Assembly: GCA_963715255.1 (NCBI GenBank)
Contig: CAVQRN010000002.1
Coordinates: forward strand, 49,185 to 113,184
DNA length: 64,000 nucleotides
Source: an uncultured Actinomycetota bacterium
Lineage (GTDB): Bacteria > Actinomycetota > Acidimicrobiia > Spongiisociales > UBA5794
Direction of reading: 5' to 3'
The notes under the pieces were generated by a model. It saw only the letters and a program-made list of their open reading frames with translations. It was not told where the DNA came from and did no database searches. Within the stretch, counting starts at the first letter, position 1, and every line of letters starts with the position of its first letter. Below are positions 1,705-64,000 of the stretch, piece by piece. The translations under genes were made by a program, and so were the position numbers.

Positions 1705-1826
1705 GTGACGCTTCGGCGTTCTCGACAGTTGAGAGAGGGGACGCCCAATAGCTCCCAAGGAATGGACCGTGCACAACCCGAGCGTTGACCGTCGCGTCAT
1801 CGTCACATAGCAAGGAGCCCCCAAAC

Positions 1827-3020
1827 ATGCGCATCGCCAATCGGATCGCCAACCTCGGAACCGAAACTGCCTTCGCGGTATCGGGCGAGGCCGCCGCATT
1901 CGCTGCCGAGGGGAATCGGGTCTACCCGTTCCACCTCGGCGACATCAACCTCCCAACCCCGTCGACCGTGGTCGAAGGAGCAACAAAGGCCATCGCAGAC
2001 GGCAAGACGGGCTACTGCCCGAACGCGGGGATCCCGCAGCTGCGCGAGGCGCTCGCTGCCGACGTCGCCGCGTCCCACAACACCGACTACACGGCTGAGA
2101 ACGTGGTCATGCAGCCCGGGGGGAAACCCACGATCGGCAAGTTCATCCTGACCATGATGAACCCGGGCGACGAAGTGCTCTATCCGAACCCCGGCTACCC
2201 GATCTACGAGTCCCAGATCGAGTTCAACGGCGGAGTCGCCGTCCCGTACGGGTACGTCGAAGGCACCGAGAACTTCGAGTTCGACTTCGACTCTATCGAG
2301 CGCGGTATCACCGACAAGACCCGCCTGTTGATCCTCAACGATCTCCAGAACCCGATGGGTGCCGAATGCTCGATCGAGGAGCATGAGAAACTCGCTGAAT
2401 TGGTCCGCAACCACAACCTGTATGTGCTCGCCGACGAGGCGTATTTCGACATGCGTTACTCGGGGAAGAGCACGTCGTTCGTCGAACAGCCGGGAATGGC
2501 AGAGCGCACCGTCGTGCTCTACACCTTCTCGAAGAAGTTCGCGATGACCGGATGGCGTCTGGGTGCGAGCATCGGTCCGAAAGAGATCGTCGATGTGATC
2601 GCCAAGATCAACGTCAACGACGAATCCTGCTCGAATCACTTCATCCAGTACGGCGCTCTCGCCGGACTCGAGGGTGACCAGAGTGAACCCCAGGCGATCC
2701 TCAACACACTCGAAGCACGGAGAGACGCAACCGCCAAAGGTCTGAACGCCATCGACGGGATCCACACCTTCACGCCGAACGCCACCTTCTACCTGTTCCC
2801 GAACGTCACCGAGTTGATGGCTCGCAAGGGCATGAGCAACTACGAGGAGTTCCGTCGCGCAGCACTCCACGCGACCGGGGTGTCGTTCACGTCACGGATC
2901 CACTTCGGCCGCGAACTCGAAGGCGAGCAGAACAAGTACATCCGTCTCGCCTACTCCGGTATCAACATCCCAGACATCGAAGAAGGCCTTGGTCTGCTGA
3001 AGGACTGGGCAGAGGCTTAG
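1827..3020 (+). CDS. PLP-dependent class I/II aminotransferase (aspartate aminotransferase-like)
   Basis: AAGGAG RBS upstream of the ATG at 1827. PLP-lysine motif SKKFAMTGWRLG. Typical N-terminal MRIANRIANLGTETAF. Confidence 0.85.
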   Translation: MRIANRIANLGTETAFAVSGEAAAFAAEGNRVYPFHLGDINLPTPSTVVEGATKAIADGKTGYCPNAGIPQLREALAADVAASHNTDYTAENVVMQPGGKPTIGKFILTMMNPGDEVLYPNPGYPIYESQIEFNGGVAVPYGYVEGTENFEFDFDSIERGITDKTRLLILNDLQNPMGAECSIEEHEKLAELVRNHNLYVLADEAYFDMRYSGKSTSFVEQPGMAERTVVLYTFSKKFAMTGWRLGASIGPKEIVDVIAKINVNDESCSNHFIQYGALAGLEGDQSEPQAILNTLEARRDATAKGLNAIDGIHTFTPNATFYLFPNVTELMARKGMSNYEEFRRAALHATGVSFTSRIHFGRELEGEQNKYIRLAYSGINIPDIEEGLGLLKDWAEA

Positions 3021-3021
3021 A

Positions 3022-3150
3022 AGTAGCTGAGTAGCTGAGTAACTGAGTAACCGAGTAGCTGAGCAACCGAGTAGCTGGGTTGCCGAGGAAGGTCGGGAAG
3101 CCTTCATTCTCCGCTACCCGGCTACTCGGCTACTCCGCTACCGGATTGCC
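3022..3150. repeat. tandem octamer repeat (GAGTAGCT/GAGTAACT/CGAGTAGC) followed by inverted copies (GCTACTCGGCTACTCCGCTACC); hairpin-forming intergenic element between convergent genes
   Basis: Direct copies lie at 3022-3080 and inverted copies at 3108-3148. The same family recurs at least 8 more times in the window. Confidence 0.8.
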
Positions 3151-3153
3151 GCG

Positions 3154-5404
3154 CTACCCAGCGAGAGCACTCAGATAGGCCTTGATCCGCCTCAGCTGTC
3201 CTTCACCGTCGAGCCCTGCTTCATGGACGACCATGTCGCCGGTGCCGGACCCGAGGTAGTGGCCCTTCTCGAAGGGATACATCGTGTGGGCGCGTCCCAG
3301 CTCGCTGTGAATCCACCGATACATGGTCGGCAGCGTGAACCCGGTGATACCCATCGCCTGCTGGGCCGATGCCTCCGGGAAGATCGCCCGTTGCTCGGCG
3401 ATCGAGAGTCTGTCGAACAGTTCGGCGGACGTGACCAGATAGACATCGAGGTCGATCCCCGCCTCTGCCAGCAGCGGCAAGGTCTGATCGACGAAGGCGT
3501 AGGCCACCGCAGAGCCCTGCAGTACCACGGCGGCGTCGGCCGTGCCGGCAGCAGCGCGGCAGCTTGTAGAACCCCTGCGCCGCCATGCCGGCGGCTGCCA
3601 ACCCGAGCGCATCGCGATCGGGAATCGTCTCGCCGGGACGGGTGACGAACGGGGCGATCAGCGCCGGACGGGCCTGGAATGCCGCTGCCACGAGCGGCCA
3701 CATCTCTGCCGGTTCCCAAGGCGTCAGGGTGATGCCCGTGCCCGGTACGAAATTCTCCTGCAACACCTGAAGCGCCTGCGGATCCGCGTGGGTGGGACCG
3801 TCCTCACCGGTCTTCACGCCCGCATGTGCACAGACGAGCACGAACGGCCGGTACGGACCCGGTTCGGTCTCCTGTCGCGCCTGGTTGCCGATCGCGTGGA
3901 GCCGCGCCGGGATGTGTCCCAACGGTGCGAGGAAAGCGGCATACGACGCCACGGCTCCCACATGGATGCCGAAGGCCGATGCTCCGGAGAGCACACACGA
4001 CAGTCCGTCCTCACAGATGCCTCCGACGGACAACGACCGTGCTTCCGGATTGGCCGTCCGATGGTAGAAGCCATCGGGGAATCCTGCCCCTACGTCTGAG
4101 ATCGCCGTCGACCCCAGCAAGTCGGCGGCCCCGATGAGGATCGCCCCGTCGGATTCCCGATTCAGATATCCCAGAACCCTGCCCAGTGCCTGTCGCAGCG
4201 CCAGCTTGTCACCTGGCTCCAACGCAAGTTCGCCCGGCACCGTCGCCGGATCCGCCGCCGCGAATATCCGTTCCACGTCCGGAACCCCGTCGCGGAGCTT
4301 CCTCCCCCGGGTCTCGAGACGATCCTTCGCGCGTGCGATACGGTCGGCCATGGCGGCCGTCATCTCATCGGACTCCAGCAGTGTTCGATACCGTTCCAGT
4401 GCGGCCCACTGCGCCGCTTCGACGGCGACCTCATCCGACGGGTCCGGCCTCTCCCAAGTATCGACGTCGTCACCGAACACGGGCCGCTGGGTGTCGAAGA
4501 ACTCCGGGCTGCACATGGCATGACCGCCACCGTGCGACTTCTTGCCCTCGATGCCGTACTGCCACCCCTTCGTCGTGCGATACACGATCGCGGTGGGCTG
4601 CCCGTTGTCCATCTCGGTCGCCATCCGCTGGGCGGTGAGCACCAACGCGAAGTCGAATCCGTCCGGGACGTAGATCACATTCCAGTCGTGCAGATAGAAC
4701 AACTCCTTCGGATCCCACTGCACGTAGTCGCCGGGTCGGTCGCCCTCGCGAGTCACCGCGTCCGAATCGATCGAGGACTGGTTCCAGTCGACATGCATCA
4801 CCGCATTCGACAGGCCCGCTGTGCCGGCGAACGCCACCGCCTCAACGACCCGCCCCGGAGTCAGCCCACCTTCGCCCTCGATCAGATGCACCCGGGGCGC
4901 GTCGGTGCCGTAGGCGTCGGCAGCCGCCACCGCCAGGCCGAGCGACGATCCAACCCCGATTCCCGATGCACCGGTTGACAGTTTCACGAAGGGCGTCGCA
5001 GGAGTCGGATGCCCATCCAGCGCTTTCGAGCCGAATCGCCGGAACAGAGGGGCCTGCCGGGCCGGATTGCGACGGAACCCGAGCAGATCCTCGAAGCGCA
5101 GCCGTAGATTCGCTTCGTCGGGTAGGAGTTCAGGCCGGGCGATTCGAGCGATCTCGTCGCGCAGGGCGAACATCGCGTACAGACCGAGCGCCTTGTGCCC
5201 GGCCGAGTACGAGATCAAGTCCTGATCCGTGCGGTTCGGATCGCCGATGTCGTAGTCCATGTCGTCGAACAACAACCCCGCCACGATGTGGCCAGACGAC
5301 ACCGAACCACCCGGGTGCCCGGACTGGGCGTAGTTGAACAGCACCGCACACAGCCCTCGGTACACATCGTCAAACCGCTTCAAGGCCGCCAGATCGTCCG
5401 GCAT
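3154..5404 (-). CDS. tkt: transketolase; apparent single-base frameshift near 3560-3600
   Basis: N-terminal SGHPGG TPP-binding motif about 25 aa after the start at 5404. The C-terminal third (VLQGSAVAYAFVDQ...) continues in a different frame (ORF 3154..3612). The upstream frame degenerates into R/G-rich junk after GFYKLP. Confidence 0.75.
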
Positions 5405-6098
5405 CGCTTCCGCCGGCTCTGACACCTCCACCCATGTTGCTCGTCGCGGTCCAAACGCTGGATTCGTGATCACTTCAACTCCTCAACTTGCTCGTTCGAT
5501 GGCGGTGCGCACTCGCCTCCTGGCGGTCTGTCCGATGCACTTCAGACAGCCTACTTGCTCGCCCGATGGTCGATTCCACGGACAGGTGCAGGGGGTCGGC
5601 CAACGTGTCCCATCCCCTAGTCCCGGACTTCCAAGCCTCCAGCTTCCTGCTCTGAGCCATGACGGGCGTCCTTGCCTCATCGCCATGATTCAGGCGCCCA
5701 GAGCCCCCCGGCCCTTCGGGCCACCTCCCCCATAGGCTCAATCCACGGTTGGTGACGTGGGAGAGACCACCCTTCTCCTGTCCCCCCGCCGGAACGGCCG
5801 AGGGACGCGAGGAGCTTGCGACGAGCAGGGGGCCACCAGCGAGTTCACACAAGCGCACTCGCATCCGATAGTGACGAGGCCAACACGGGCCCCCTCTGGC
5901 CTGCCGCCCATCTCCCCAACTGCGTGGAGGAGCGTGTCAGAAAGTCCCGTTCACCCCTTCACCCGGATCGTGACCATCGGCAACGTCTCGAATCCCGGCC
6001 CCACCATGAGACCCCGGCTGAGGCGGAGGAAGAGGCGCCGCCGGCGACCGGAAGCTGGCAACTGGAAGTGGTAGCCGGAATCCGGCTCGTCTCGTGAC

Positions 6099-10229: not shown

Positions 10230-10296
10230 TCGAGCTACGAGCTGCCGGCTACCGGCAGTCCCCACTCAGCTACTCAGCTACTCAGCTACTCAACCG
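10230..10296. repeat. octamer repeat array (GAGCTAC x2, CTACTCAG x3 plus a small palindrome CCGGCTACCGGCAG)
   Basis: The last repeat unit provides the TGA stop of the amidohydrolase gene. Confidence 0.75.
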
Positions 10297-11654
10297 ACGA
10301 GCCGCGCCGCGGCCATATGGTGCTTCTCGATCAAGACCGGCAGCTCAACACCGACCAGTTCTCCGTCCTTCACGACTGCCCGTCCATGCACGTAGTTCTG
10401 GTCGACACCAGTCGGCGCGACAAAGAGCACGGCGGCAACCGGATCGTGGAGCGCACCGGCATACTCCAAACGGTCGAGCGAGATGGCGATGAAGTCCGCT
10501 CCCTTTCCTGGCTCCAGCGAGCCGACATCGTCCCGCCCGAGGACCGCGGCCGAACCGCGGGTTGCGATCCGAAGTGCTTCTCGTGCCGTGAGCAACCGGC
10601 CGCCTTCGATCGACGGGGCGGCTGCCAGCCGCGCAAGCAGCATCGCCTGCCGGGCTTCGGCGATCAGGTGACTGCCATCGTTGCTCGCCGAGCCGTCCAC
10701 GCCGAGACCGAGTCGAACATTGGACGCCAAGTAGCGCCGGACCGGAGCGATGCCGGATGCGAGGCGCATGTTCGATGACGGACAGTGGGCTACTCCGGTC
10801 CCCGATTCGGAGAGTCTTTCAATCTCGGCGTCGTTGATGTAGATGCCGTGGGCATACCAAACGTCATTGCCAACCCATCCCAGGTCCTCCATGAGTTCGA
10901 CGGGGCGCCGCCCGAACGTCTCGATGCAGAACTGCTCCTCGTCGTGTGTCTCGGCGACGTGGGTGTGGAGATGGACGCCGTAGCGCCGGGCCAGTGCGGC
11001 GGATTCGCGCATCAGGCCCGCGGTCACGGAGAACGGTGAACACGGTGCGACGACGACGCGGGTCATGGCTCCGGGTGCCGGATCGTGGAACGCGTTGATC
11101 ACCCGTTCAGTGTCAAGAAGGATCGTCTCGTCGTCCTCAACCACCGAGTCGGGAGGCAGTCCCCCGTCGCTCTCACCGAGACTCATCGAACCTCTGGCGG
11201 CATGGAAACGCAGCCCAACCGCTGCTGCACCCGCGATCTGGTCGTCGAGGCTCGACCCATTCGGGAAGAGGTACTGGTGGTCAGACGAGGTCGTGCAGCC
11301 GGAGAGTGCCAATTCGGAGAGGGCGAGCTGTGTCGAGATTCTCACATCGTCCGGAGTGAGGCGTGCCCATATGGGATAGAGCGTGCGGAGCCAGTCGAAC
11401 AGGCCAACGTCCTGTGCGCCGGGCACGGCGCGGGTCAGCGTCTGATAGAAGTGATGGTGTGTGTTGATGAGTCCGGGAAGCACGACATGCCCGGAGAGGT
11501 CCACAACGTCGTCGGCCGTCTCGGGAAGCTCCGCGGTCGAGCCGACCTGTTCGATGAACCCGTCGACGGCGAAGAGGCCCCCGTCGCTGATCTCCGTTCC
11601 AGCGTCGTCCATGGTGGCGAGAACCTGCGCGTGCCGAACGAGAAGTGTGCTCAT
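10290..11654 (-). CDS. amidohydrolase superfamily (COG0402), guanine/8-oxoguanine deaminase-like
   Basis: HHHFYQT metal-binding motif and the remaining His/Asp ligands of the TIM-barrel amidohydrolase fold. Start MSTLLVRHAQ at 11654. Confidence 0.75.
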   Translation of the reverse strand: MSTLLVRHAQVLATMDDAGTEISDGGLFAVDGFIEQVGSTAELPETADDVVDLSGHVVLPGLINTHHHFYQTLTRAVPGAQDVGLFDWLRTLYPIWARLTPDDVRISTQLALSELALSGCTTSSDHQYLFPNGSSLDDQIAGAAAVGLRFHAARGSMSLGESDGGLPPDSVVEDDETILLDTERVINAFHDPAPGAMTRVVVAPCSPFSVTAGLMRESAALARRYGVHLHTHVAETHDEEQFCIETFGRRPVELMEDLGWVGNDVWYAHGIYINDAEIERLSESGTGVAHCPSSNMRLASGIAPVRRYLASNVRLGLGVDGSASNDGSHLIAEARQAMLLARLAAAPSIEGGRLLTAREALRIATRGSAAVLGRDDVGSLEPGKGADFIAISLDRLEYAGALHDPVAAVLFVAPTGVDQNYVHGRAVVKDGELVGVELPVLIEKHHMAAARLVG

Positions 11655-11756
11655 AGAGAACAATGTACCAACCCGACCGTGGTCGTCCGTCGGTAGTCGG
11701 GTCCCCGCTTCCTCGATACAATGGCGAGACGGGGTCGAAGAAGAGGAGCGACGAAC

Positions 11757-12497
11757 ATGATTACGCAGTACCACCGACCGCTCACGCTCGAAGAGGCGGT
11801 CGCGCTCACCGCACGACCCGATGCCGTGATCATCGCCGGAGGAACCTCCGTCAATGCCGACCCCGGCCGCAGGCCCGCCACCGCTGTTGACCTGCAAGCG
11901 CTCGACCTCGCAGGAATCGACACCGACGGCGAGTCCATCCGTATCGGTGCGACAACACGCCTCCAAGATCTCGTCGATTCGACACTCGTCCCTGTCGTGC
12001 TCCGCGATCTCGCCCGACGGGAAGCACCGAATACCATCCGCAATGCCGCAACGATTGGCGGAACGATCGGGGCCGTCGATGCAGAGAGCGAACTACTTGC
12101 CGGCCTGCTCGCGTTCGGATCGAGCGTAACGCTCGTGCGTGCCGGTTCGACGACCGAGCATGCTCTCGACGAGATCCTCGACGACCCGGCGCTGCTCAAC
12201 GGAGCCATCATGACCAGCGTATCCATCCCGTCCAACGGACTCGCCGCAGCCGATCGGACCGGTCGCACCCCCATGGATCGGCCGATCGTGATGGCCGTCG
12301 CACACCGGGACCACAAAGGGACCGTTCGGCTGGCCATGACCGGTGTCTTCACCCGCCCCGTTGTGGTCGATCCAGAGCAGATCTCCAGCCTTGATCCACC
12401 ATCCGACTTCCGGGGCTCGCCGGGCTACCGCAAGAACCTTGCCGAGGTACTCGCAGGCAGGGTCCTCGCCACCGTCACCGGAGGTGAACGAACATGA
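11757..12497 (+). CDS. FAD-binding molybdopterin dehydrogenase subunit, second copy
   Basis: AGGAG RBS before the ATG at 11757. IIAGGTSVN FAD motif. Overlaps the next gene by 4 bp. Confidence 0.75.
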   Translation: MITQYHRPLTLEEAVALTARPDAVIIAGGTSVNADPGRRPATAVDLQALDLAGIDTDGESIRIGATTRLQDLVDSTLVPVVLRDLARREAPNTIRNAATIGGTIGAVDAESELLAGLLAFGSSVTLVRAGSTTEHALDEILDDPALLNGAIMTSVSIPSNGLAAADRTGRTPMDRPIVMAVAHRDHKGTVRLAMTGVFTRPVVVDPEQISSLDPPSDFRGSPGYRKNLAEVLAGRVLATVTGGERT

Positions 12498-17692: not shown

Positions 17693-17740
17693 GCGGGCCC
17701 GCCGAGGGAGAACACCTGCTCCGCTACTCCGGCACTCCCC

Positions 17741-19143
17741 TACCCGACCACTGATTCCGGCAGCAACGCATTCGTTCCACGATGCAGATACTCCCCGCGC
17801 CCGGGTTCGCCGACGAATTCACCGAGATCGACGATGACCTCTCCGCGCAGCATGACGGTCTCGACGCGGCCACCGATCTCCGCACCCTCGAAGACCGAGT
17901 AATCGAGATTCATCGAATGCGTCGCTGCAGACAGTGTGTGTGATGCGGCAGGGTCGTAGATGACGACGTCGGCGTCGGACCCGGGAGCGATACGTGCCCT
18001 TCTTCGGGTAGATCCCGGACAGCTTGGCAGGCGTCTCCGCGGTTACTTCGATCCACCTGGTGAGTGGAATCCAGCCTTCCACGACACCCTGGTAGACGAG
18101 ATCCACTCGGTGCTCGACAACGCCGAGGCCGTTCGGGATCTTGCGGAAGTCTCCCCGCCCCGCCTCCTTCTGCTTCCACGTGAACGGGCAGTGGTCGGTG
18201 GCGACCGCGTCGATCCTGCCGGTCGAGACCCCGGACCACAGCGCCGCTTGGTGTCCTTCACTGCGACGCCGCAGCGGTGGCGAACAGACGAACTTCGCTG
18301 CCTCGAATCCCTCGGGGAGGTCCTCCTGGGCGAGCCAGAGGTACTGGGGACAGGTTTCGGTGAAGACGGGCAGGCCCCGATCACGAGCGACGACGGCCTC
18401 AGCGAATGCATCCTGCGAAGAGATGTGCACGATCACAAGAGCGCATCCCACGATTTCCGCGAGTGCGGCAACACGATGGACGGCTTCGGCCTCCATCGAG
18501 GCCGGTCGGGTCAGCAGGTGGTAGATCGGATCGGTCTCGCCTCGGGCAATGGCCTGATCCCGAAGGGCGTCGATGGCGATTCCGTTCTCGGCATGCATCA
18601 TGATCGTGGCGCCGATCGAGGCAGCGACCTGCATCGCTTCGAGGATCTGCCGATCGTCAGACAGATTCACGCCCGGGTACACGGTGAAGAGCTTGAAGGT
18701 GGTGACCCCCGCATGCATCATCTCGGCGAATTCGCCGAGCGTGCCTTCATGGACGTCGGTGACCATCATGTGGAATCCGTAGTCGATGAACGACTTCCCC
18801 TCGGCGCGATCCATCCATTCGGCGAGTCCGTCTTTGAGCGTTCCTCCCCGTGTCTGGCCGGCGTAGTCGACGATCGTCGTTGTCCCACCGATAGCAGCAG
18901 CCCTCGTGCCCGTCTCATACGTATCTGCCGACGACGTCCCAGAGACCGGCAACTCCATGTGCGTATGCATGTCGACGCCGCCGGGAATCACGTACCGTCC
19001 GGTGGCGTCGATCACTCGGTCGAATTCGTCTCCCGCTGCGCCGGGTTCGACGACACCGACGATGCGCTCTCCCTCGACGACGACATCTGCCTCCGTCGCC
19101 ACGGCACCCGTCACGACCGTTCCGTTACTGATGAGTGTTCGCA
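17741..19143 (-). CDS. dihydropyrimidinase/D-hydantoinase (cyclic amidohydrolase); apparent +1 insertion frameshift near 18003
   Basis: DMHTHME metal site, carboxylated-Lys region and DHCPF motif. After ...PAKLSGIYPKKGT the frame switches. The alternative frame gives the expected IAPGSDADVVIYDP...LRGEVIVD C-terminus. Start MRTLISNG at 19143. Confidence 0.75.
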
Positions 19144-21260: not shown

Positions 21261-21617
21261 CGGTGGAGGTGGGGGGAATCGAACCCCCGTCCCACGAGGT
21301 TTCAGCGTCGGCATCTCCGAGCGCAGCCGACAGCGAGCTTTCGGAACCTGAGAGACGCCGTCGGCAGTTTCTCCTGGGTCCTAGTCGGAATTGTCTTACC
21401 CCGCCGATCCCGACATCCCGGCGGGGGCATCCTGCATTGTTATGCCCGGATCCGGCGAGACAGGCACCCTCCGGTCGGACACGCTGCGTTAATTATGCAG
21501 CGAATGCGTAACTTTCGTTATTGGCACTTATGTTTGTTCCCGGCTCTTTAACGAGGCTCCGGGGACCTCGGCTCGCTTCCGGCGCCTCAACCCTCACGGT
21601 CGAAACCATGTCACCCC
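21261..21617 (-). ncRNA. ssrA: tmRNA (ssrA), about 357 nt
   Basis: Read on the minus strand: 5' GGGGGUGACAUGGUUUCGAC..., 3' ...GGACGGGGGUUCGAUUCCCCCCACCUCCACC. Internal tag reading frame GCC AAU AAC GAA AGU UAC GCA UUC GCU GCA UAA (ANNESYAFAA*). smpB lies 1.6 kb away. Confidence 0.85.
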
Positions 21618-21702
21618 CATTTCTGGGGAACACGCTTGGCGCGTTCATCACGCTCAAGAGTAGTCGTGCGATCCCGTCACCGCTTGCCCGTTTTCCCGCT
21701 AG

Positions 21703-22596: not shown

Positions 22597-23167
22597 GTGC
22601 GCTCCTCTTGGGACAATCGTTACCGGGAACGGTCGGCTCCGGTAGACCCTTCGGCGTTTGTCACCGTTGAACTCGCACCGCTTCTCGGCTCGCCCGGTCG
22701 GGCACTCGATCTCGCCGGAGGCGCAGGGAGACACGGCGTTTGGCTTGCGGAGCGTGGCTGGGAGACGACCATGATCGATACGTCGGAGGTCGCGATAGCA
22801 CTCGCCGCTGAGCGGGCAGGAGAGGCCGGCGTCGACGTCACACTCGTTCACAGCGACCTCACCGCCGCAACGCTCCCCGACGGCCCATGGGATCTCGTGC
22901 TCATCGTGCACTACCTCCAGAGAGACCTCTTCTCCCCGGCCATCGACACTCTGGCGGATGACGGCCTGATCGCGTTCCTCGGTCGCCACCGTTCGGAACC
23001 TGCAACGCCGGGAGCGACCATCCCTCCCCTACCTCCTCCAAGAGGGCGAGGCGCCGTCGCTCGTTGACGGTCTCCAGATCCTCCACTACGCCGAGGGCTG
23101 GTCGATCGAGGACCGGCACGAGGCAAGGGTGGTGGCCCGTAGACGGAGTAGCCGGGTAGCTGGGTAG
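22597..23167 (+). CDS. SAM-dependent methyltransferase, TehB-like; apparent frameshift near 22995-23030
   Basis: Class I MTase motif LDLAGGAGRHGVWLAERG. After ...LIAFLGRHRSEP the frame changes. The alternative frame gives a TehB-like C-terminus ...QEGEAPSLVDGLQILHYAEGWSIEDRHEARVVARRRSSRVAG*. Its last residues and TAG stop lie inside the octamer repeat. Confidence 0.6.
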
Positions 23168-23175
23168 CTGAGCAC
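23139..23175. repeat. octamer repeat array (GGAGTAGCCGGGTAGCTGGGTAGCTGAGC)
   Basis: Same family as 3022-3150. Encodes the C-terminal ...SRVAG* of the upstream gene. Confidence 0.7.
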
Positions 23176-26844: not shown

Positions 26845-26876
26845 CCTACTCGGCTACCGAGCTACCCAGCTACTTC
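26845..26876. repeat. octamer repeat array (CTACTCGG/CTACCGAG/CTACCCAG/CTACTTCC)
   Basis: Contains the prfB TAG stop and encodes its last residues ...EVAG*. Confidence 0.7.
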
Positions 26877-27969
26877 CCTCCGCCACTGCAGATAGCTGTC
26901 TATGAGGGCGTCCAGGTCTCCGTCGAGGACACCCTGGATGTTTCCTATCTCGCGGCCGGTACGAAGATCTTTGACCATCTGGTAGGGCTGGAGTACGTAG
27001 GAACGGATCTGGCGTCCCCAGCCGGCTTCGGTTTGGTCGCCGCGGATGGCGTCGACCTTCGCCTGCTGTTCGACACGGGCCCGATCCGCCAGTCGTGCGG
27101 CGAGGAGATGCATTGCCCTCACCCGGTTCTGGGTCTGAGACCGTTCGGCTTGACAACTGACAACGACACCGGTGGGCAGGTGCGTCAGCCTGACCGCCGA
27201 ATCCGTCTTGTTGATGTGCTGGCCGCCGGCACCCGACGCCCGGTATGTGTCGACCCTGAGATCCTCCGGGTTGATTTCGACCTCTTTGACGTCGACTTCC
27301 GGGATGACATCGACACCGGCGAATGCCGTGTGGCGACGAGCGGCCGAATCGAACGGACTGATCCGCACGAGCCGATGCACGCCGCGTTCGCTCTCGAAGA
27401 TTCCGTAGGCATGATCTCCCTTGATGGTGATCGTGGCCGACTTGATGCCCGCTTCCTCACCGACCTGGTACTCGTCCACTTCGAAGGAGAGCTCGGTTCG
27501 TTCGAGGTATCGCAGGTACATACGGAACAACATCTCCGCCCAATCCTGAGCATCGACGCCGCCGGCACCGGCATGAACCGACATGATTGCGGTCGAGTCG
27601 TCGTGAGGACCGAAGAAGAGCGTTTCGCGCTCGAGACGACTGAGCGTCGTTTCGGTTTCGCGCAGCTCCTTCATCGCGTCGTCGAGGCCCGAGGCATCGT
27701 CTTCTTCAAGGCCGAGTTCGATCAGCACCTCGGCGTCATCAAGTGCCTCGTCCAGGATCGCCACCTGCTCGATGGTACGTTCGTGCCGAGCGAGGGTTCG
27801 GGTCACCGCGAGTGCCCGATCCTGATCGTCCCATAAGCCAGGTTCGGAGACCTGCTGCCTCAGTTCGACGAGTGCCTGTTCTTTGCCTGCGACGTCAAAG
27901 GAACCTCCTGGCGTCGTCGAGCCGTGAGCGCAGGTCGTTCAGAAGTATGCGGAGGTCATTCGGTTCCAT
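26862..27969 (-). CDS. prfB: peptide chain release factor 2, expressed via programmed +1 ribosomal frameshift
   Basis: ORF0 (MEPNDLRILLNDLRSRLDDARRFL) ends at an in-frame UGA within CUU UGA C. The +1 frame continues DVAGKEQALVELRQQ... through SPF and GGQ motifs to 26862. Confidence 0.85.
27894..27900 (-). promoter_or_regulatory. RF2 autoregulatory +1 frameshift site CUU UGA C with an internal Shine-Dalgarno-like AGGAGG 3 nt upstream
   Basis: Read on the minus strand: GCC AGG AGG UUC CUU UGA CGU. This is the classic RF2 recoding cassette. Confidence 0.8.
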
Positions 27970-30916: not shown

Positions 30917-30950
30917 GCGGAGTAGCCGAGTAGCTGAGTAGCCGAGTGGT
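30917..30950. repeat. octamer repeat array (GGAGTAGCCGAGTAGCTGAGTAGCCGAGTGG)
   Basis: Same family. Located between the secA start and the upstream gene's stop. Confidence 0.7.
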
Positions 30951-30966
30951 CGAACGAAGTGTCGCG

Positions 30967-31320
30967 TCATGAGCGGACGTTGGCCTTCAGTCTCAGCAGC
31001 ATTCGCCTGATTGCGCCGACCTCGGCAAGATGATCATCGGCGACGCCACGGGGAACTGCTCCCAGATCTCTCGCCAGGAGGAGATGACTCTCAAGTTCAG
31101 CCGCGGAGCCGAGAGCGATCGTCAGGAACCTGCGGAACTCCCTCACCGACTCTCGTCCCGCTCCCTCTGCAATATTCGCGGGAATGGACATCGCTGCCCG
31201 TGTGATCTGATCGCCGAGGCCGAAGCGGTGGCGGCCACTCAACCCGTCGGCCGTCCGATGGATGTCGAGAGCAAGATGGTGAGCTCGTTGCCACACATCG
31301 AGTCTTCTGAAGTTCCGCAT
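30967..31320 (-). CDS. four-helix-bundle protein (the family often found inside 23S rRNA intervening sequences)
   Basis: MRNFRRLDVWQRAHHLALDIH...IAEGAGR signature. 117 aa from the start at 31320. Confidence 0.6.
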   Translation of the reverse strand: MRNFRRLDVWQRAHHLALDIHRTADGLSGRHRFGLGDQITRAAMSIPANIAEGAGRESVREFRRFLTIALGSAAELESHLLLARDLGAVPRGVADDHLAEVGAIRRMLLRLKANVRS

Positions 31321-31411
31321 TTCCCCGTCATACATGAAGAGAGCGGTGGGTTCTAGACGCTCGTGTGCCGGAGCTCGAACTGCCGGGATCACCGTCTACA
31401 AGCTGAGTCTT

Positions 31412-31447
31412 CCTCGGCTACTCGGCTACTCGGCTACTCAGCTAGTC
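31412..31447. repeat. octamer repeat array (CTCGGCTACTCGGCTACTCGGCTACTCAGCTAG)
   Basis: Directly abuts the TGA stop of the response-regulator gene. Confidence 0.7.
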
Positions 31448-32096
31448 AATCCAGACTGATCAGGTCTTCCCGTACCGCGTACAGGACTGCCTCGTTCCTG
31501 GAGTGGAAACCGAGTTTGTCGAGGATGTTCCTGATGTGGTTCTTCACCGTGTTCTCGGAGATGAACAGGTCCGTGCCGATCTCGCGGCTCGTCTGTCCCT
31601 GTGCCACGAGTCCAAGGACCTCGATCTCACGCCCGGTCAACACCGGCTTCCTCGATTGCAGCAGCTCCTGGTGGCGGAGCAACTGCCGGGTCACATCGAG
31701 GAGCTTTCCTGCCATGTTCGGGGAAATGGCAGCCCCGCCGTTCTCAACAGCGTTGAGGGCTCCGACCAGGGCGTCGAACGGGGCGTCCTTCGTGACGTAT
31801 CCGCGAGCCCCGGCTTTGATGCCAACGAGGAGGTCCTCCTCCGATTCGCTCGCAGTGAGCAGAATGACGTGCGCTCCCGGAGCGACGGCGCTGATCTTCT
31901 CGACGACCTCGAGGCCCGAGATGCCGGGCATCAGGATGTCGAGCAGGACCAGATCCGGTTGATACTCCTCGGCAGCGGAGACTGCCCCTTCTGCGTCGCC
32001 TGACTGGGCAATGACCTCGAATCCGGCGTCTTTCAGTGCTGATGCCAGTCCTGCTCTGAACAGCGGCACATCGTCAACAATGAGCAGTCTCTTCAT
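31446..32096 (-). CDS. two-component response regulator, NarL/LuxR family
   Basis: REC domain (DD...D...K) plus a C-terminal LuxR-type HTH (LTGREIEVLGLVAQGQTSREIG...SENTVKNH). Confidence 0.85.
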   Translation of the reverse strand: MKRLLIVDDVPLFRAGLASALKDAGFEVIAQSGDAEGAVSAAEEYQPDLVLLDILMPGISGLEVVEKISAVAPGAHVILLTASESEEDLLVGIKAGARGYVTKDAPFDALVGALNAVENGGAAISPNMAGKLLDVTRQLLRHQELLQSRKPVLTGREIEVLGLVAQGQTSREIGTDLFISENTVKNHIRNILDKLGFHSRNEAVLYAVREDLISLD

Positions 32097-33385: not shown

Positions 33386-33471
33386 GCCCCCGACCGTAAA
33401 GGCAGAGTGGGACAGAATTCGTGAGATCAGATCGGTCACCGGCGAATGAGACCGGTGATCCGTTTTCAAAC

Positions 33472-33578
33472 AAGTAGCTGAGTAGCCGAGCAACCGAGTC
33501 GTCGCACGAGACTGATCCCGACAGGCAAGGTCCCCGAGTGGTCTCTGCTACTCCGCTACTCCGCTACTCCGCTACTCG
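33472..33578. repeat. octamer repeat: direct copies (33472-33510) and inverted copies CTACTCCG x3 (33546-33578), forming a long hairpin
   Basis: Directly abuts the TGA stop of ahcY. Confidence 0.75.
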
Positions 33579-33579
33579 A

Positions 33580-34827
33580 TCACGTTCCTTCTTCCCACGA
33601 TGTCAGGTAGCGGGCTTGTTCTTCTGTCAATGTCTCCAGTGACGCGCCCATTGCTTTGAGCTTGAGCCGAGCGACGGACTCGTCGAGCTCACGGGGCAGC
33701 GTGTACACATCGGGTGGGAGATCGCCGCCTACTTGGACAAGCCACTCTGCGGCGAGCGCCTGGTCGGCGAACGACATGTCCATCACATCGGCGGGGTGGC
33801 CCTCGGCTGCGCCCAGATTCACCAGCCGTCCCTCAGCCACGACGATGATTCGGCGCCCATCGTCCAGTTCGAACTCCTCGAGATTCTCCCTGATCTCGCG
33901 ACGAGCAACCGCCATCTGGCGAAGCCCGACCAGATCAAGTTCCACATCGAAGTGCCCGGCGTTCGCGATGAGAACGTTGTCCTTCATCACCAGGAAGTGC
34001 TCGGGTCGGAAGACGTGGATGCCGCCCGTCACCGTGAGGAAGACATCTCCAACCGGAGCCGCCTCGGCCGCCGTCATCACCCGGTAACCCTCCATCGCCG
34101 CCGAGAGTGCCCGAATCGGGTCGACCTCGACCACGACAACACTTGCCCCGAGGCCTGATGCACGGCGGGCGATACCCCATCCACAGTCACCGAAACCTGC
34201 GACGACCACGGTACGTCCGGCGAACAGGATATTCGAAGCCCTGAGAATCCCGTCGAGCGACGACTGTCCGGTTCCGTGCCGGTTGTCGAACAGATGTTTC
34301 GTTTCGGAGTCGTTCACGGCCACAACCGGGTAGCGAAGGACCCCCTCGGCGGCCATCGCTCGGAGGCGCAGCACGCCGGTGGTCGTCTCCTCGAGGCCTC
34401 CGAGGATCGGTTGCAGCTTCCGTTCACGATGCAGAACGGTCGTGGTGTCTGCCCCATCGTCGAACACGATGTGCGGCTCGGTGTCGAGGATTGCGTTGAT
34501 GTGTCGGTAGAAGGTATCGGGATCCTCACCGCGCACTGCGTACACGGGGATGCCGTCATCAACGAGCGCCGCAGCCACGTCATCCTGGGTCGAAAGAGGG
34601 TTCGAAGCGCACAGGGCCACCGATGCCCCACCGACGCGCAGCGTTTGCATCAGCGTCGCAGTCTCGGTCGTTACGTGCATGCAGGCAGCGACCCGGATAC
34701 CCTCCAGCGGTCGTTCGGCCTCGAACCGTTCCCGGATCGCAGCAAGGACCGGCATTCTGCGGTCGGCCCACGCGATTCGCCGATGCCCTTCGAATGCGAG
34801 TGACGAATCAGCGATGTCATAGTTCAT
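33580..34827 (-). CDS. ahcY: adenosylhomocysteinase
   Basis: Start MNYDIADSS. NAD-binding GFGDCGWG region and typical AdoHcyase substrate-domain motifs. Confidence 0.9.
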   Translation of the reverse strand: MNYDIADSSLAFEGHRRIAWADRRMPVLAAIRERFEAERPLEGIRVAACMHVTTETATLMQTLRVGGASVALCASNPLSTQDDVAAALVDDGIPVYAVRGEDPDTFYRHINAILDTEPHIVFDDGADTTTVLHRERKLQPILGGLEETTTGVLRLRAMAAEGVLRYPVVAVNDSETKHLFDNRHGTGQSSLDGILRASNILFAGRTVVVAGFGDCGWGIARRASGLGASVVVVEVDPIRALSAAMEGYRVMTAAEAAPVGDVFLTVTGGIHVFRPEHFLVMKDNVLIANAGHFDVELDLVGLRQMAVARREIRENLEEFELDDGRRIIVVAEGRLVNLGAAEGHPADVMDMSFADQALAAEWLVQVGGDLPPDVYTLPRELDESVARLKLKAMGASLETLTEEQARYLTSWEEGT

Positions 34828-41026: not shown

Positions 41027-41040
41027 GGGGTGAAGAGTAG

Positions 41041-41090
41041 CGCAGTAGAGCAGTAGCAGGCAACGCAGTACTGATCTACTGATCTACTGC
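41041..41090. repeat. variant repeat array: GCAGTAGA/GCAGTAGC direct copies followed by inverted CTACTGAT x2
   Basis: Related to the GAGTAGCY family. Supplies the TAG stop and last residues (...EAVDQ*) of the 94-aa gene. Confidence 0.6.
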
Positions 41091-41360
41091 TTCCGGCAGA
41101 TCTTCGAGCTTCCCGAGGTAGCGGGATCGTCGCTTCCCATCCTCGGTCCAGTATGCATACCAGTAGGGACCGTGGGGGCACCGGGTGCAGTTGTCTTTCC
41201 CGCATCGGACCATCTGTTTCCGCAGCTTGACCTCGGGCCCCGACCCCGGCAGATCCACACCGCGTCCCTCGAGGCGAGCCTTGGCAAGAATGTAGAGCCG
41301 GCGCAACCCGTGTTCGTCCATTTCTCGCACTGCCTCGAGAACGTCCCTGTCGATCGACAC
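41076..41360 (-). CDS. hypothetical protein (94 aa) with a CxxC...CxH motif
   Basis: Clean ORF. CGKDNCTRCPHGPYWYAYW. Confidence 0.4.
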   Translation of the reverse strand: MSIDRDVLEAVREMDEHGLRRLYILAKARLEGRGVDLPGSGPEVKLRKQMVRCGKDNCTRCPHGPYWYAYWTEDGKRRSRYLGKLEDLPEAVDQ

Positions 41361-47922: not shown

Positions 47923-47994
47923 GGAGGAAGTTGCAGGCAGCAAGCAGCAAGCAGCGGGACTGAAGCATTCTCTTGTCGTGCCGGTTGCTCCCTG

Positions 47995-53332: not shown

Positions 53333-55078
53333 GTGAAATCCGTTCTCATCGCGAACCGGGGCGAGATCGCCGTCCGCGTGATTCGCGCCGCTCACGATCT
53401 CGGTCTCCGTGCGATCGCCATCTACTCCGAATTGGACAGAGACGCCGTCCACGTCGACCTTGCCGATGAGGCGTGGAACGTCGGTCCGGCCCCATCGTCC
53501 AAGTCCTACCTCAATGTCGATCGGATTCTGGAAATCGCCCGCGAGTCAAGGGCCGATGCCATCCACCCCGGATACGGATTCCTCGCAGAGAATGCGGCCT
53601 TCGCCAGAGCGGTCACCGACGCAGGTCTGACGTGGGTCGGCCCCCCACCCGAGGCGATCGCCACCATGGGCGACAAGATCGCGTCCCGCGTCGCTGCCGT
53701 CAAGGCCGGTGTGGCCGCGGTTCCAGGGACGACCGAGCCACTCACGGATGTCTCCCAGGTCAAGGCCTTCGCAGACGAGCATGGTCTGCCGATCGCCATC
53801 AAGGCAGCCCACGGAGGAGGAGGCAAGGGACTCAAGGTTGTTCGTGAGAGCGGTGACCTCGATTCCGCTTACGAAGGGGCCCGGCGCGAGGCCGAAGCGT
53901 GGTTTGCCAATCCCGAGGTCTACGTCGAACGCTACCTCGACACGCCACGCCACATCGAAGCCCAGGTGATGTTCGATACTCACGGCAACGGTGTGTTCCT
54001 TGGCGAACGAGACTGCTCCCTCCAACGACGCCACCAGAAACTCATCGAAGAGACCCCTGCTCCGGGATTCTCCGACGGGCAGCGGGCCGAGCTCGGGCGA
54101 GCTGCCCTTGCCGTTGCGCGTGCCGCCGGATACGTGAATGCCGGCACGGTCGAGTTCCTGCTCGACACGAACGGTGACCTGTTCTTCCTCGAGATGAATA
54201 CGAGGATCCAGGTTGAGCACACGATCACAGAAGAAACAACCGGTGTCGATCTCGTCGTGGAACAGTTGCGCGTCGCCGCCGGTGAGATCCTCTCGTTCGA
54301 TTCGGTCGAACGGACCGGTCACGCGATCGAATTCCGGATCAACGCAGAGGACCCGTCCAATGGCTTCCTCCCCACACCAGGCAAGCTCTCGGCATACCGT
54401 GAACCGGCAGGACCCGGGATCCGCGTCGACAGCGGCGTCCGTCAGGGTTCGCGTATCTCCCAGTACTACGACAACCTCATCGCCAAACTCGTCGTCCGCG
54501 GGCGGGATCGTGAAGAAGCGATCCGCAGATCGATCCGGGCGCTGACCGAGTTCAAGATCGAAGGCGTTGAGACGACGATCCCCGCACACCTGGAGATTCT
54601 CCGGGGTCCCGACTTCGCCGCGGGCAACATCCACACCCGTCTCGTGGAAGATTCGATGGACTTCAGCCGGCTCGGCACGAAGACCTCACCTGCGATGCCG
54701 GAAGACGAGGAACTCCAGGAGCGTGAGATCACCGTCGAGGTGAGCGGTCGACGTTTCGAGGTCAAGTACTGGTCGCAGGTCATCGCATCGACGGGGTCGG
54801 GACAGCGCCCCGCGCCGCGACGCAAGGCACCGAAGCTCAGCAAGGAGCAGTCGGCCGGTGCCGGCGAGGGCATCGTGACATCGCCGATGCAGGGCACGAT
54901 CGTGAAGGTTCACCACTCGGCCGGTGACACCGTACACGCCGGCGATCCGGTGTGCGTGCTGGAAGCGATGAAGATGGAGAATGAGATCAAAGCGCCGACC
55001 GACGGTGACATCGTGGATCTCCGAGTCCGGCCGGGCGACACGGTGAGCACGGGCGCGGTGCTGATGGTGATCAGGTAG
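53333..55078 (+). CDS. acyl-CoA carboxylase alpha subunit (biotin carboxylase plus biotin carboxyl carrier domain)
   Basis: ATP-grasp biotin carboxylase motifs. C-terminal biotinyl-Lys motif EAMKMEN. Confidence 0.9.
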   Translation: MKSVLIANRGEIAVRVIRAAHDLGLRAIAIYSELDRDAVHVDLADEAWNVGPAPSSKSYLNVDRILEIARESRADAIHPGYGFLAENAAFARAVTDAGLTWVGPPPEAIATMGDKIASRVAAVKAGVAAVPGTTEPLTDVSQVKAFADEHGLPIAIKAAHGGGGKGLKVVRESGDLDSAYEGARREAEAWFANPEVYVERYLDTPRHIEAQVMFDTHGNGVFLGERDCSLQRRHQKLIEETPAPGFSDGQRAELGRAALAVARAAGYVNAGTVEFLLDTNGDLFFLEMNTRIQVEHTITEETTGVDLVVEQLRVAAGEILSFDSVERTGHAIEFRINAEDPSNGFLPTPGKLSAYREPAGPGIRVDSGVRQGSRISQYYDNLIAKLVVRGRDREEAIRRSIRALTEFKIEGVETTIPAHLEILRGPDFAAGNIHTRLVEDSMDFSRLGTKTSPAMPEDEELQEREITVEVSGRRFEVKYWSQVIASTGSGQRPAPRRKAPKLSKEQSAGAGEGIVTSPMQGTIVKVHHSAGDTVHAGDPVCVLEAMKMENEIKAPTDGDIVDLRVRPGDTVSTGAVLMVIR

Positions 55079-55122
55079 CCGAGTAGCCGAGTAGCCGAGC
55101 AGCTGAGCAGCTGAGCAGCTGG
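55079..55122. repeat. octamer repeat array (GTAGCCGA x3, GCAGCTGA x3) filling the whole 47-bp gap between convergent genes
   Basis: The first unit contains the TAG stop of the carboxylase alpha gene. Confidence 0.75.
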
Positions 55123-63475: not shown

Positions 63476-63606
63476 GAGATCGAGCAGCTAGGGCCGCGGC
63501 GTGCTTGTCATCGTCCGTCCCCCCGTCCCTACGGCCCGAGGGGACCGGAGCTGGAAGCTGCAAGCGGCAAGCTGGCAGCTCTGGAAGCGCTGGAAGCTCC
63601 GACCTC

Positions 63607-64000
63607 TCAGTCAGGCAGGGGAAGGTGCAACGCTGCGCCGACCCTCATGATTGGCGCCACCGGTTCGGGGGTCGGGGACGGGGACGGGGACGGAGTCGGA
63701 GTCGGGGCTGCAGTGCTTGCCTTGACCGCCTGGGTGACCGGCGCGGGGGCAACCGTTGTGGTGGGCGCCGCCTCAGGTGCTGGAGCCGTCGTCGTGGTCG
63801 GAGCGGGAGCGGGTGCGGGAGCCGGTGCCACCGTCGGCGGCGGGAGTGGAGCGGTCGTCGTCGTGGTCGTCGGTGCCGGAGCAGCCTTGCGCATGAAGAT
63901 GACGGTCACCCAGAGCTGACCACTGTCGCTCTGGGATACACCGATTCCGACGTAGTTGTAGTTGCCGAGGATGTTGCGACGGTGACCGGCCGAAGCCATG
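63607..64000 (-). CDS. CAP (SCP/PR-1-like) domain C-terminal fragment with a Pro/Thr/Ala-rich tail; gene continues beyond the window end
   Basis: HRRNILGNYNYVGIGV...LWVTVIF CAP3/CAP4-like motifs, then a (PAPT)n low-complexity linker. Confidence 0.4.
   Translation of the reverse strand, partial: MASAGHRRNILGNYNYVGIGVSQSDSGQLWVTVIFMRKAAPAPTTTTTTAPLPPPTVAPAPAPAPAPTTTTAPAPEAAPTTTVAPAPVTQAVKASTAAPTPTPSPSPSPTPEPVAPIMRVGAALHLPLPD

Follow-up and report, generated by a model that had tools for sequence, protein, structure and literature searches.

Sequences of the short tandemly repeated repetitive (STRR) kind, reportedly described from heterocystous cyanobacteria by Mazel in 1990, and the intervening sequences (IVSs) of rRNA genes have each been known for more than 30 years, but their function has remained obscure and they have been regarded as curiosities that have nothing to do with each other. 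STRR sequences are 7-bp tandem repeats of unknown function that form hairpins between genes (PMC2670836), and, as reported by Vioque (1997), they are also inserted in the helix of a stable RNA, the RNase P RNA. In the 23S rRNA IVSs with an S23p open reading frame (ORF) of Leptospira, Coxiella, and Xanthomonas, a PF05635 gene lies in the loop of a stem that is closed by inverted flanks, and in Coxiella this stem contains two to three strain-variable GACAGAT tandem heptamers at the RNase III site (PMC4990558). The hallmarks of repetitive extragenic palindromic (REP) sequences and their REP-associated tyrosine transposases (RAYTs) are a location downstream of genes, inverted pairs, a GTAG motif, and a single-copy gene flanked by the repeats (PMC3733652), while multicopy sites of three to five tandem 7- or 8-mers (e.g., GTTGCTYN) without a known function have been reported from Geobacter metallireducens (PMC2700814). 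The current study deals with a dispersed family of tandem octamers, (GAGTAGCY)n, in a 64-kb stretch of DNA from an uncultured member of the Acidimicrobiia (UBA5794-like; contig CAVQRN010000002.1; hereafter, the window) and with a PF05635 gene that is enclosed by two of these arrays.

The arrays are located at the 3' ends of genes, and hairpins composed of direct and inverted copies are retained at orthologous sites while their sequence changes. We regard them as STRR-like and IVS-like non-coding hairpin repeats of 3' untranslated regions, which would evolve by slippage and allele replacement and would owe their stop-rich orientation to a selective filter, an explanation that in our judgment has about an even chance of being correct.

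Octamer arrays at the 3' ends of genes

Tandem Repeats Finder and an 8-periodic scan against (GAGTAGCY)n detected arrays of period 8 with 2.6 to 8 copies each, i.e., ten strong arrays at eight loci, a pair of arms of the variant CAGTAGAK, and one decayed copy (Table 1). A three-unit pattern with up to three mismatches matched the window 22 times, compared with 0.00 expected matches (maximum of 0 in 100 dinucleotide-preserving shuffles), and the dispersed octamer family proposed in the first-pass annotation of the window is thus real. At least 10 loci per 64 kb carry octamer arrays, all of which are intergenic or overlap last codons only, and an Rfam scan of the window assigned no family to any array and reported tmRNA alone. 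The unit had been described as AT-richer than its surroundings, which holds only marginally (50 to 62% GC versus 61 to 66% for the genome). Arrays are present at every locus that had been named before, but at 10230-10296 the array is confined to 10264-10292, and the remainder is a small separate hairpin (CTGCCGG-TAG-CCGGCAG) that is unrelated to it; the heptamer arrays at 47933-47955 and 63549-63600 had been overlooked. Runs of the hexamers GGGGAC and CGGAGT were seen at 63668-63705.

According to Pfam, the neighbors of the arrays are housekeeping genes, which encode an aminotransferase, a transketolase-like protein, an amidohydrolase, a CO-dehydrogenase flavoprotein, SmpB, FtsE, RF2, SecA, a LuxR-type response regulator, AdoHcyase, acyl-CoA carboxylase alpha (accA), and methylmalonyl-CoA mutase. 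The previously noted location at gene 3' ends is borne out by seven Pfam-verified genes of the window (aminotransferase, amidohydrolase, prfB, response regulator, AdoHcyase, accA, and the C-terminal frame of a methyltransferase), the same-sense stop codon of which lies 0 to 4 nt before the array or within it. The aminotransferase gene (1785-3020, +), e.g., terminates with a TAG codon at 3018-3020 and faces a convergent transketolase-like gene that ends at 3221; accA terminates with a TAG codon at 55076-55078, and the stop codon of the convergent mutase gene is located at 55126. In RF2, the last four residues are encoded by the array and vary among strains.

Orientation statistics were based on the window and 20 loci of related metagenome-assembled genomes (MAGs; 206 kb), with gene calls from a codon model that was trained on 13 verified window genes and found the correct frame in 48 of 51 blocks. 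Thirty-four of the 55 stop-bearing 7/8-mer arrays with a 5' neighbor follow a co-oriented gene end, and in 28 of these cases the stop codon is found between -17 and +23 nt. For the stop-free orientation, contact with a gene end was seen in about six arrays, two of them wedged between convergent stops. At stop codons that are in contact with an array, the stop-rich strand is therefore mostly in the sense of the gene (28 versus ~6), and the individual orientations given there for the loci at 10230, 23139, 26845, 31412, and 30917 are correct as well. The apparent exception, the array at 30920 (+), runs antisense to the neighboring genes because it is the inverted partner of the array at 31413 (-). 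When the window and its relatives are taken together, arrays are present in 12 of 21 gaps between convergent genes, in 22 of 117 between co-directional genes, and in 5 of 27 between divergent genes; the window alone, which represents an unbiased sample, has arrays in four of six convergent and none of five divergent gaps. A statistic on incoming ORFs of at least 100 codons was dropped, since 85% of random positions in GC-rich sequence comply with it.

The length of the unit is not a multiple of three and the unit contains TAG and TGA, so that stops occur in all frames of one strand, while the complementary strand is stop-free, just as had been stated. Every frame is stopped within 1.5 units. 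The arrays could, in line with the view of the first-pass annotation, have been selected as three-frame translational stop modules and terminators. In a GC-rich genome, where off-frame stops are scarce, they would catch ribosomes that have read through or shifted frame. The sense bias at stop codons and the genes with stop codons inside arrays are in agreement with such a function, and in other phyla all 10 of 10 sense ORFs ending at the first stop of an array carry Pfam domains, although these were picked by eye among 23 candidates and represent an illustration rather than a rate. However, the inverted arms, and 21 of the 55 arrays overall, face away from the neighboring gene end, many 7-mer arrays of related genomes are devoid of stops on either strand (GACAGCR, TGTCTTC, and 15 arrays classified as "no-stop"), the TAG-less variant units GAGCAGCC and GAGCCGCC persist, and in the relatives L205 and L226 the stop-free arm comes first. 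Moreover, one extra stop would suffice and 3 to 20 units are unnecessary, T-tails are missing, and a passive filter predicts the orientation bias equally well. Selection as stop modules is hence an explanation that we consider rather improbable.

Three of the flanking regions showed further peculiarities. The prfB gene has a canonical programmed +1 frameshift site (AGGAGG TTC CTT TGA C) at ~27895-27910 (-), so that the N-terminal part, encoded in the 0 frame, is missing from the annotated ORF of 314 codons. The methyltransferase gene (22597-23167, +) is split over two frames; its N-terminal part stops at 23067, and the C-terminal part crosses three array units, which encode the tail RRSSRVAG. 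A frameshift, a pseudogene, or an error in the assembly might underlie the split; the array at 23146-23172 is identical across seven independent metagenome contigs. An ORF with high GC3 at 3154-3612 (-), which overlaps the 3' end of the transketolase-like gene (3221-5473, -) and ends 15 nt from the inverted array, has no Pfam match and may represent the frameshifted C terminus of the transketolase-like protein.

Table 1. Repeat arrays of the window and the gene enclosed by two of them. For octamer arrays, + means that the stop-rich GAGTAGCY strand is the + strand of the window.
Feature	Coordinates	Strand	Remarks
Array of ~8 units, GAGTAGCT / GAGTAACY / GAGCAACC	3022-3087	+	5' hairpin arm; starts 1 nt past aminotransferase TAG
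Inverted arm, 4 units GAGTAGCC / GGGTAGCG	3109-3141	-	Pairs with 3022-3087; 20-nt spacer between
Single array (TGAGTAGC)3.6	10264-10292	-	Begins with TGA stop of amidohydrolase gene 10290-11966 (-)
Decayed four-unit copy GGGTAGGG GAGTGCCG GAGTAGCG GAGCAGGT	17712-17745	-	Between convergent genes; weak, recognized by eye only
GAGTAGCC GGGTAGCT GGGTAGCT	23146-23172	+	Methyltransferase C-terminal frame runs through; stop TAG 23165-23167
Array holding the prfB TAG stop 26862-26864	26846-26874	-	
Inverted arm GAGTAGCC GAGTAGCT GAGTAGCC	30920-30947	+	19 nt past PF05635 stop, 52 nt before secA start
PF05635 / TIGR02436 four-helix-bundle gene (IVP)	30967-31392	-	Likely start ATG 31317; in the loop between the arrays at 31413 and 30920
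Array (GAGTAGCC)3	31413-31448	-	Starts with TGA stop of LuxR-type response-regulator gene 31446-32096 (-); 5' stem arm
Inverted arm	33473-33499	+	Pairs with 33543-33578
Array (GAGTAGCG)4	33543-33578	-	2 nt past AdoHcyase TGA stop (gene 33580-); 5' hairpin arm
CAGTAGAG-variant arm	41036-41056	+	
GATCAGTA-variant inverted arm	41069-41089	-	Overlaps TAG stop of ORF 41076-41360 (-)
Heptamer array (GCAAGCA)3.3	47933-47955		Between convergent genes; possible member of a wider 7/8-mer repeat population
(GAGTAGCC)2.5 (GAGCAGCT)3	55075-55121	+	Fills the entire accA/mutase gap; without inverted arm
Heptamer array GCTGGAA / GCTGCAA / GCTGGCA	63549-63600		Intergenic gap; same unit type at other sites in relatives L205 and L226

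Folding and turnover of the arrays

Direct copies followed by inverted ones had been proposed for four loci, and such pairs exist at 3022, 33472, and 41041. The three pairs fold far better than shuffles: the region 3018-3156 reaches -65.5 kcal/mol (z -4.9), and the z scores are -3.2 and -3.7 in two computations for 33466-33582 and -3.0 for 41030-41095. Their stems consist of 7-bp helices with single mismatches between them. The fourth locus, 55079, only shows a switch from GAGTAGCC to GAGCAGCT (z +0.33 for the array at 55075), and the folds of all of the single arrays (10264, 23146, 26846, 55075, and 17720) are indistinguishable from shuffles (z -1.2 to +0.3), e.g., with z scores of -1.2 for 10264 and +0.1 for 17712-17745.

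Intrinsic terminators are characterized by a GC-rich stem-loop and a U-tract, a combination that was found at none of the arrays, and a terminator scan of the window reported no array as a canonical intrinsic terminator. Terminator-like sites were not more frequent than in shuffles (8 versus 8.9, 12 versus 10.1, and 6 versus 9.5). The tail-less array hairpins may possibly terminate transcription. The sole convincing canonical intrinsic terminator of the window (21103-21077, -), which combines a GC-rich stem of 12 bp with a tail rich in T, follows the tmRNA gene (21261-21618, -; Rfam, 184.6 bits), which is located near smpB. Likenesses of the arrays to TRAP-binding triplets, Rho rut sites, pause sites, the tRNA D-arm, and K-turn motifs were dropped for want of fit or test.

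The first-pass annotation had recommended a comparison of orthologous intergenic regions, and it revealed that the hairpin of arrays is kept while unit, length, and allele differ. At the 3' site of the AdoHcyase gene, a hairpin of arrays lies between conserved flanks in five relatives (SecA identity of 89 to 97%), with z scores of the folds from -1.6 to -4.2. The units at this site are GAGTAGCG, CAGTAGAK, or AGCTACC heptamers in reverse topology, and the lengths differ too. The orthologous accA/mutase junction of the Acidimicrobiia MAG L092 (amino acid identity of 90 to 92%) also has an array in the gap, which is 70 nt long and differs from that of the window in length, units, and stop codon. 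The synteny with L092 and the label Actinobacteriota_UBA5794 on one of the metagenome contigs with identical window proteins agree with the assignment of the host to the Acidimicrobiia. In general, the relatives carry period-7 and period-8 arrays, with 0.31 array regions per kb of the related MAG loci.

Even closely related strains differ in their arrays. At the prfB site, the 99% identical strain L001 carries a CAGTAGAG-type allele with an inverted arm instead, and unrelated array alleles occur at the prfB, AdoHcyase, and aminotransferase sites of strains with 98 to 100% identical flanks. Several of them recur in lineages that are less closely related, e.g., that of L207 matches L206, and the sharing of divergent alleles between lineages is indicative of whole-allele replacement. 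Other differences concern the copy number, such as three versus five units (L208), a 14-copy arm (L209), and a 15-nt indel (L195 versus L199). The idea that the repeats are being templated was abandoned, as the differences between strains consist of copy number changes and whole-allele replacements; templated hypermutation in situ was rejected on account of the divergent alleles that recur in other lineages. Contigs of MAG194 end inside GAGTAGCG arrays of 16 to 20 or more copies (L043, 422-580; L072, 4489-4615). Short-read assemblies are thus interrupted at the arrays, which are probably longer in reality than they appear.

In a search of one-genome-per-species bacteria, the exact three-unit pattern matched at least 106 stretches, compared with ~1 expected from length alone. 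Among the matches listed, two Acidimicrobiia MAGs have 10 and 8 loci, followed by MAGs of Thermoanaerobaculia (6), Gemmatimonadaceae (5), and Verrucomicrobiae (4), and single matches occur in many Streptomyces and other taxa. A unique preference for the octamer in all sequence space was not supported by viral contigs, which contain no match for GAGTAGCY and one to four matches for control octamers. An assembly of Anaplasma phagocytophilum (L080 and L105) has long (GAGTAGCT)n arrays on short scaffolds with a GC content of 40%, which may represent DNA of the host (tick) or another contaminant rather than Anaplasma.

The copy number polymorphism and the very rapid turnover would also be expected if the arrays were functionless, slippage-prone microsatellite-like DNA, which is tolerated downstream of genes and homogenized by slippage and recombination. 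The single arrays without structure, the arrays that arbitrary control octamers form in viral contigs, and the lack of an array at the aminotransferase 3' end in those relatives where this gene has other neighbors fit this assumption. Independent births would, however, yield locus-specific units and not one family at 10 or more loci, and the clustering of matches per MAG, the hairpin architecture that outlasts sequence change at orthologous sites, the co-variation of the arms, and the fact that in unrelated metagenomes the arrays are strongly and specifically associated with a single protein family (see below) argue against it. We thus consider a purely microsatellite-like nature of the arrays to be unlikely.

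A PF05635 gene between inverted arrays

Only one of the ~10 array loci of the window carries a PF05635 gene, and this gene (IVP) is located in a stem made of arrays, as in 23S IVSs. The protein was assigned to Pfam family PF05635 (9.6e-32) and to TIGR02436 (110 bits versus a cutoff of 24). Its predicted structure (pLDDT of 93) matches XCC0516 (2GSC; TM of 0.90) and BT_0352 (2RLD) and also Avd (4DWL/8UB7; TM of ~0.73), the accessory protein of diversity-generating retroelements (DGRs). In a 556-nt RNA that extends from the stop codon of the response-regulator gene to the secA leader, the minimum free energy and centroid folds both pair the two arrays over ~29 bp. The IVP gene is the only one of 154 genes called in array-rich Acidimicrobiia sequence whose flanks attain an inverted-repeat score of at least 14 (score of 25). 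The cassette lies outside rRNA genes, between the response-regulator gene and secA, in a window for which Rfam reported only tmRNA.

The response regulator-IVP-secA cassette is found at the same site in all relatives, but IVP is only 65 to 79% identical across relatives whose neighboring proteins and SecA are 89 to 97% identical, and in some relatives (L195-L209) the IVP gene is inverted with respect to its neighbors while the flanking arrays keep their orientation. The two arms co-vary between relatives (GAGTAGCC/GGCTACTC, GAGTAGCG/GCTACTCR, and CAGTAGAT/GATCTACT). Strains with a 100% identical response regulator exhibit two haplotypes, in which IVP-A has arms of GAGTAGCY and IVP-B has arms of CAGTAGAT, and the two IVPs are 68% identical.

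The association between the gene family and the arrays extends beyond the window. Eighty unrelated PF05635 loci were taken from metagenomes, and flank complementarity was scored for 74 of them. A period-7/8 tandem array lies within 150 nt of the gene in 68 of the 80 loci, compared with 0.14 arrays per kb elsewhere in these loci, and flank complementarity attained a z score of at least 4 in 45 and a score of at least 14 in 34 of the 74 loci. As controls, 668 pseudo-genes yielded no such case, and 154 real genes yielded one, the IVP gene of the window. The array units vary between loci (TCAGCNN, TTAGCNN, GTGACAA, AGTGATA, TAAGTTA, and others), with GCTGA as the commonest 5-mer of the flanks. One locus (L185) is a true IVS within a bacterial 23S rRNA gene, the arms of which are (GGAAGTC)n. 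Flavobacterium piscinae and F. filum show the same octamer as the window in a similar arrangement: behind a gene and its stop codon come (GTAGCTGA)6, the PF05635 gene, its stop codon, and (CTCAGCWW)4. In another Acidimicrobiia MAG (L220, 9950-10312), a PF05635 gene is inserted antisense within the nuo operon between nuoD and nuoH, and GTGAGAC-type heptamer arrays are present beside it and between other nuo cistrons. The loci L224/L225 (12500-20000) have paired heptamer arrays (TCAGCTC/GCTGACA and AACTCCA/TTTGGAG) in gaps between ribosomal-protein genes, e.g., rpsK/rpsM, which share the unit family (GCTGAGA / TCAGCTN) with the local PF05635 flanks. The literature searched on PF05635 and the four-helix bundle describes no flanking arrays apart from the Coxiella heptamers, and the cross-phylum association has apparently been undescribed so far. 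The reverse expectation, i.e., a PF05635 gene next to most GAGTAGCY arrays, was rejected, as only the window and, among the matches listed, two orthologous Flavobacterium loci comply with it.

The arrays and the PF05635 protein might form one module, in which the protein, a member of an Avd-like, pentameric, and nucleic acid-binding family, would bind the 7/8-mer on RNA or DNA. The cargo-less arrays at 3' ends would then be non-autonomous derivatives of gene-carrying copies, including 23S IVSs, comparable to the REPIN-RAYT system, and the element, be it selfish or domesticated, would spread horizontally, also into rRNA helices. Such a partnership is suggested by three unrelated settings (the window, L224/L225, and L220) in which the PF05635 gene is flanked by the unit family that is dispersed in its own genome, by the same architecture with the same octamer in Flavobacterium, by the arrays close to 85% of the 80 PF05635 loci and their preferred 5-mer, and by distal arrays that are 4 times more frequent at PF05635 loci than in single-hit genomes. 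The co-variation of IVP allele and arm type at one locus, the exceptional divergence and inversion of IVP, and the match of its fold with a protein of the DGR ribonucleoprotein point in the same direction. On the other hand, the gene is present at few array loci, not only in the window but also among the seeded GAGTAGCY loci (2 of ~106, among the matches listed), and the constant site of the cassette in all relatives provides no evidence of recent movement. The array type at other loci does not follow the IVP allele within strains, and the co-variation of IVP and arms is confounded by linkage. IVP lacks a catalytic domain, its binding to arrays is a prediction, the Coxiella protein appears not to be made (PMC4990558), and the gene may merely be retained in hairpin loops. 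A module of arrays and protein is thus a possibility that we entertain with some reserve.

Proposed role and comparison with known repeat systems

In our favored explanation, a genome-specific population of 7- and 8-base units would occupy 3' untranslated and intercistronic spaces. A direct and an inverted array would form a long imperfect stem in the presumed transcript, and in single-stranded DNA, directly past the stop codon; the same type of stem encloses the PF05635 gene here and in 23S IVSs, where RNase III cuts. Paired arrays might thus act at the RNA level as 3'-end or processing hairpins that would block 3' exonucleases, delimit cistrons, be a target of RNase III, or possibly terminate transcription independently of factors. 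The arrays would lengthen and shorten by replication slippage, and whole array alleles would be exchanged between related strains through homologous recombination. The stop-rich orientation would be a filter and not a purpose: since there are stops in all frames, an array may expand into the last codons of a gene and the protein still ends, which is not possible in the opposite orientation. Such hairpin repeats would account for the biased orientation, the C-terminal tails encoded by arrays, the inverted arms, the stop-less arrays, and the conservation of hairpins in spite of their turnover.

Several observations speak against this explanation. Half of the window arrays are without a partner and do not surpass shuffles in their folding, and an inverted partner was found within 300 nt in only ~10% of 91 arrays that were seeded across phyla. 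A hairpin role therefore cannot account for all arrays, and the assumption that they always form hairpins was rejected on these grounds. The single arrays are left unexplained, as is the recurrence of one octamer in many phyla, where singletons may be unrelated microsatellites, since control octamers form arrays too. The two arms may differ in period (7 versus 8) in related MAGs and then pair poorly, and T-tails are absent from all arrays. The co-variation of the cassette arms could reflect gene conversion between inverted arms instead of selection, and the inverted IVP gene of some relatives indeed points to recombination between them. Finally, all gene calls outside the window depend on a codon model from 13 window genes.

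The window exemplifies that STRR-like repeats fill the 3' ends of genes in an actinobacterial lineage and sometimes supply the final codons of essential proteins, of which RF2 is an example. If the arrays and the PF05635 protein were indeed one module, a protein family that has lacked a function for 30 years and is still called uncharacterized (PMC11270868) would obtain one, STRR-like repeats in many phyla would be explained, and a second RAYT-REPIN-like partnership would exist in bacteria. A functional link would provide a testable handle on the role of PF05635 and Avd-like proteins outside DGRs and on the origin and spread of the repeats, and it would bear on the formation of mRNA 3' ends in GC-rich bacteria without canonical terminators. 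For practical work, it is relevant that the arrays break metagenome assemblies, shift annotated stop codons, and can serve as hypervariable strain markers.

A literature search for the literal repeat sequence retrieved nothing, and one for octamer or octanucleotide tandem repeats retrieved only the analogue from Geobacter. The Geobacter sites are likewise mostly paired on opposite strands at a variable distance (PMC2700814), but they were read as protein-binding sites ("predicted global regulator binding sites") near promoters, insertion sequence elements lie at fixed distances, and no relation to stop codons or PF05635 was reported.

The arrays also resemble REP sequences, bacterial interspersed mosaic elements (BIMEs), and REP doublets forming hairpins (REPINs), and they might belong to the GTAG superfamily of REP/REPIN elements, which are moved by the RAYT (Y1 HUH) transposase. 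Like these elements, they are high-copy repeats outside genes, located downstream of ORFs that run in one direction or converge; their inverted pairs form larger hairpins, each octamer contains GTAG, and a single-copy gene is flanked by the repeats. In Escherichia coli, REPs in the vicinity of stop codons reportedly influence the termination of translation as well as tmRNA tagging (Liang, Rudd and Deutscher, 2015). REP sequences, however, are imperfect palindromes of 20 to 40 bp with one unpaired GTAG tag, whereas the window unit is a non-palindromic tandem 8-mer with GTAG every 8 nt, and many sister arrays (GCTGANN and GACAGCR) have no GTAG at all. No Y1_Tnp (RAYT) domain was detected among the 20 window ORFs scanned, and the only repeat-flanked gene is that of PF05635, which encodes a four-helix-bundle protein without a known nuclease or transposase motif instead of a Y1 transposase. 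It is therefore very improbable that the arrays are REP elements.

The likeness to rRNA IVSs concerns only the element at 30920-31448, in which a PF05635 / TIGR02436 ORF is enclosed by complementary flanks that close a stem. This element is located between the genes of a response regulator and SecA and not in a 23S or 16S rRNA helix, and most window arrays carry no ORF. The stem of the Coxiella IVS is cut by RNase III (PMC4990558), and the stem of the window element, which is predicted to fold in the same manner, might be processed likewise.

The STRR sequences, for which roles in transcript stability or translational coupling have been proposed, share several features with the arrays as a whole. 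A link between STRR and PF05635 was not described in the literature searched. The window unit is mainly an octamer (GAGTAGCY), with 7-mers also in relatives, whereas STRR units classically have 7 nt; the host belongs to the Acidimicrobiia and not to the heterocystous cyanobacteria, the unit is none of STRR1-3 and its octamer occurs in several other phyla, and the window arrays, which are strongly biased toward the sense orientation, begin at the stop codon or within it. Both are dispersed short tandem repeats between genes with a unit that is not a multiple of three, both form hairpins where direct and inverted copies adjoin, and the tested characteristics, i.e., several head-to-tail copies of a short unit at many non-coding loci per genome, apply to the window arrays. 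The initial impression that no described family matches the arrays is thus correct insofar as they are not a named STRR, rRNA IVS, or REP family, but they are of the same kind as the STRR heptamers (PMC2670836) and the IVS stems (PMC4990558).

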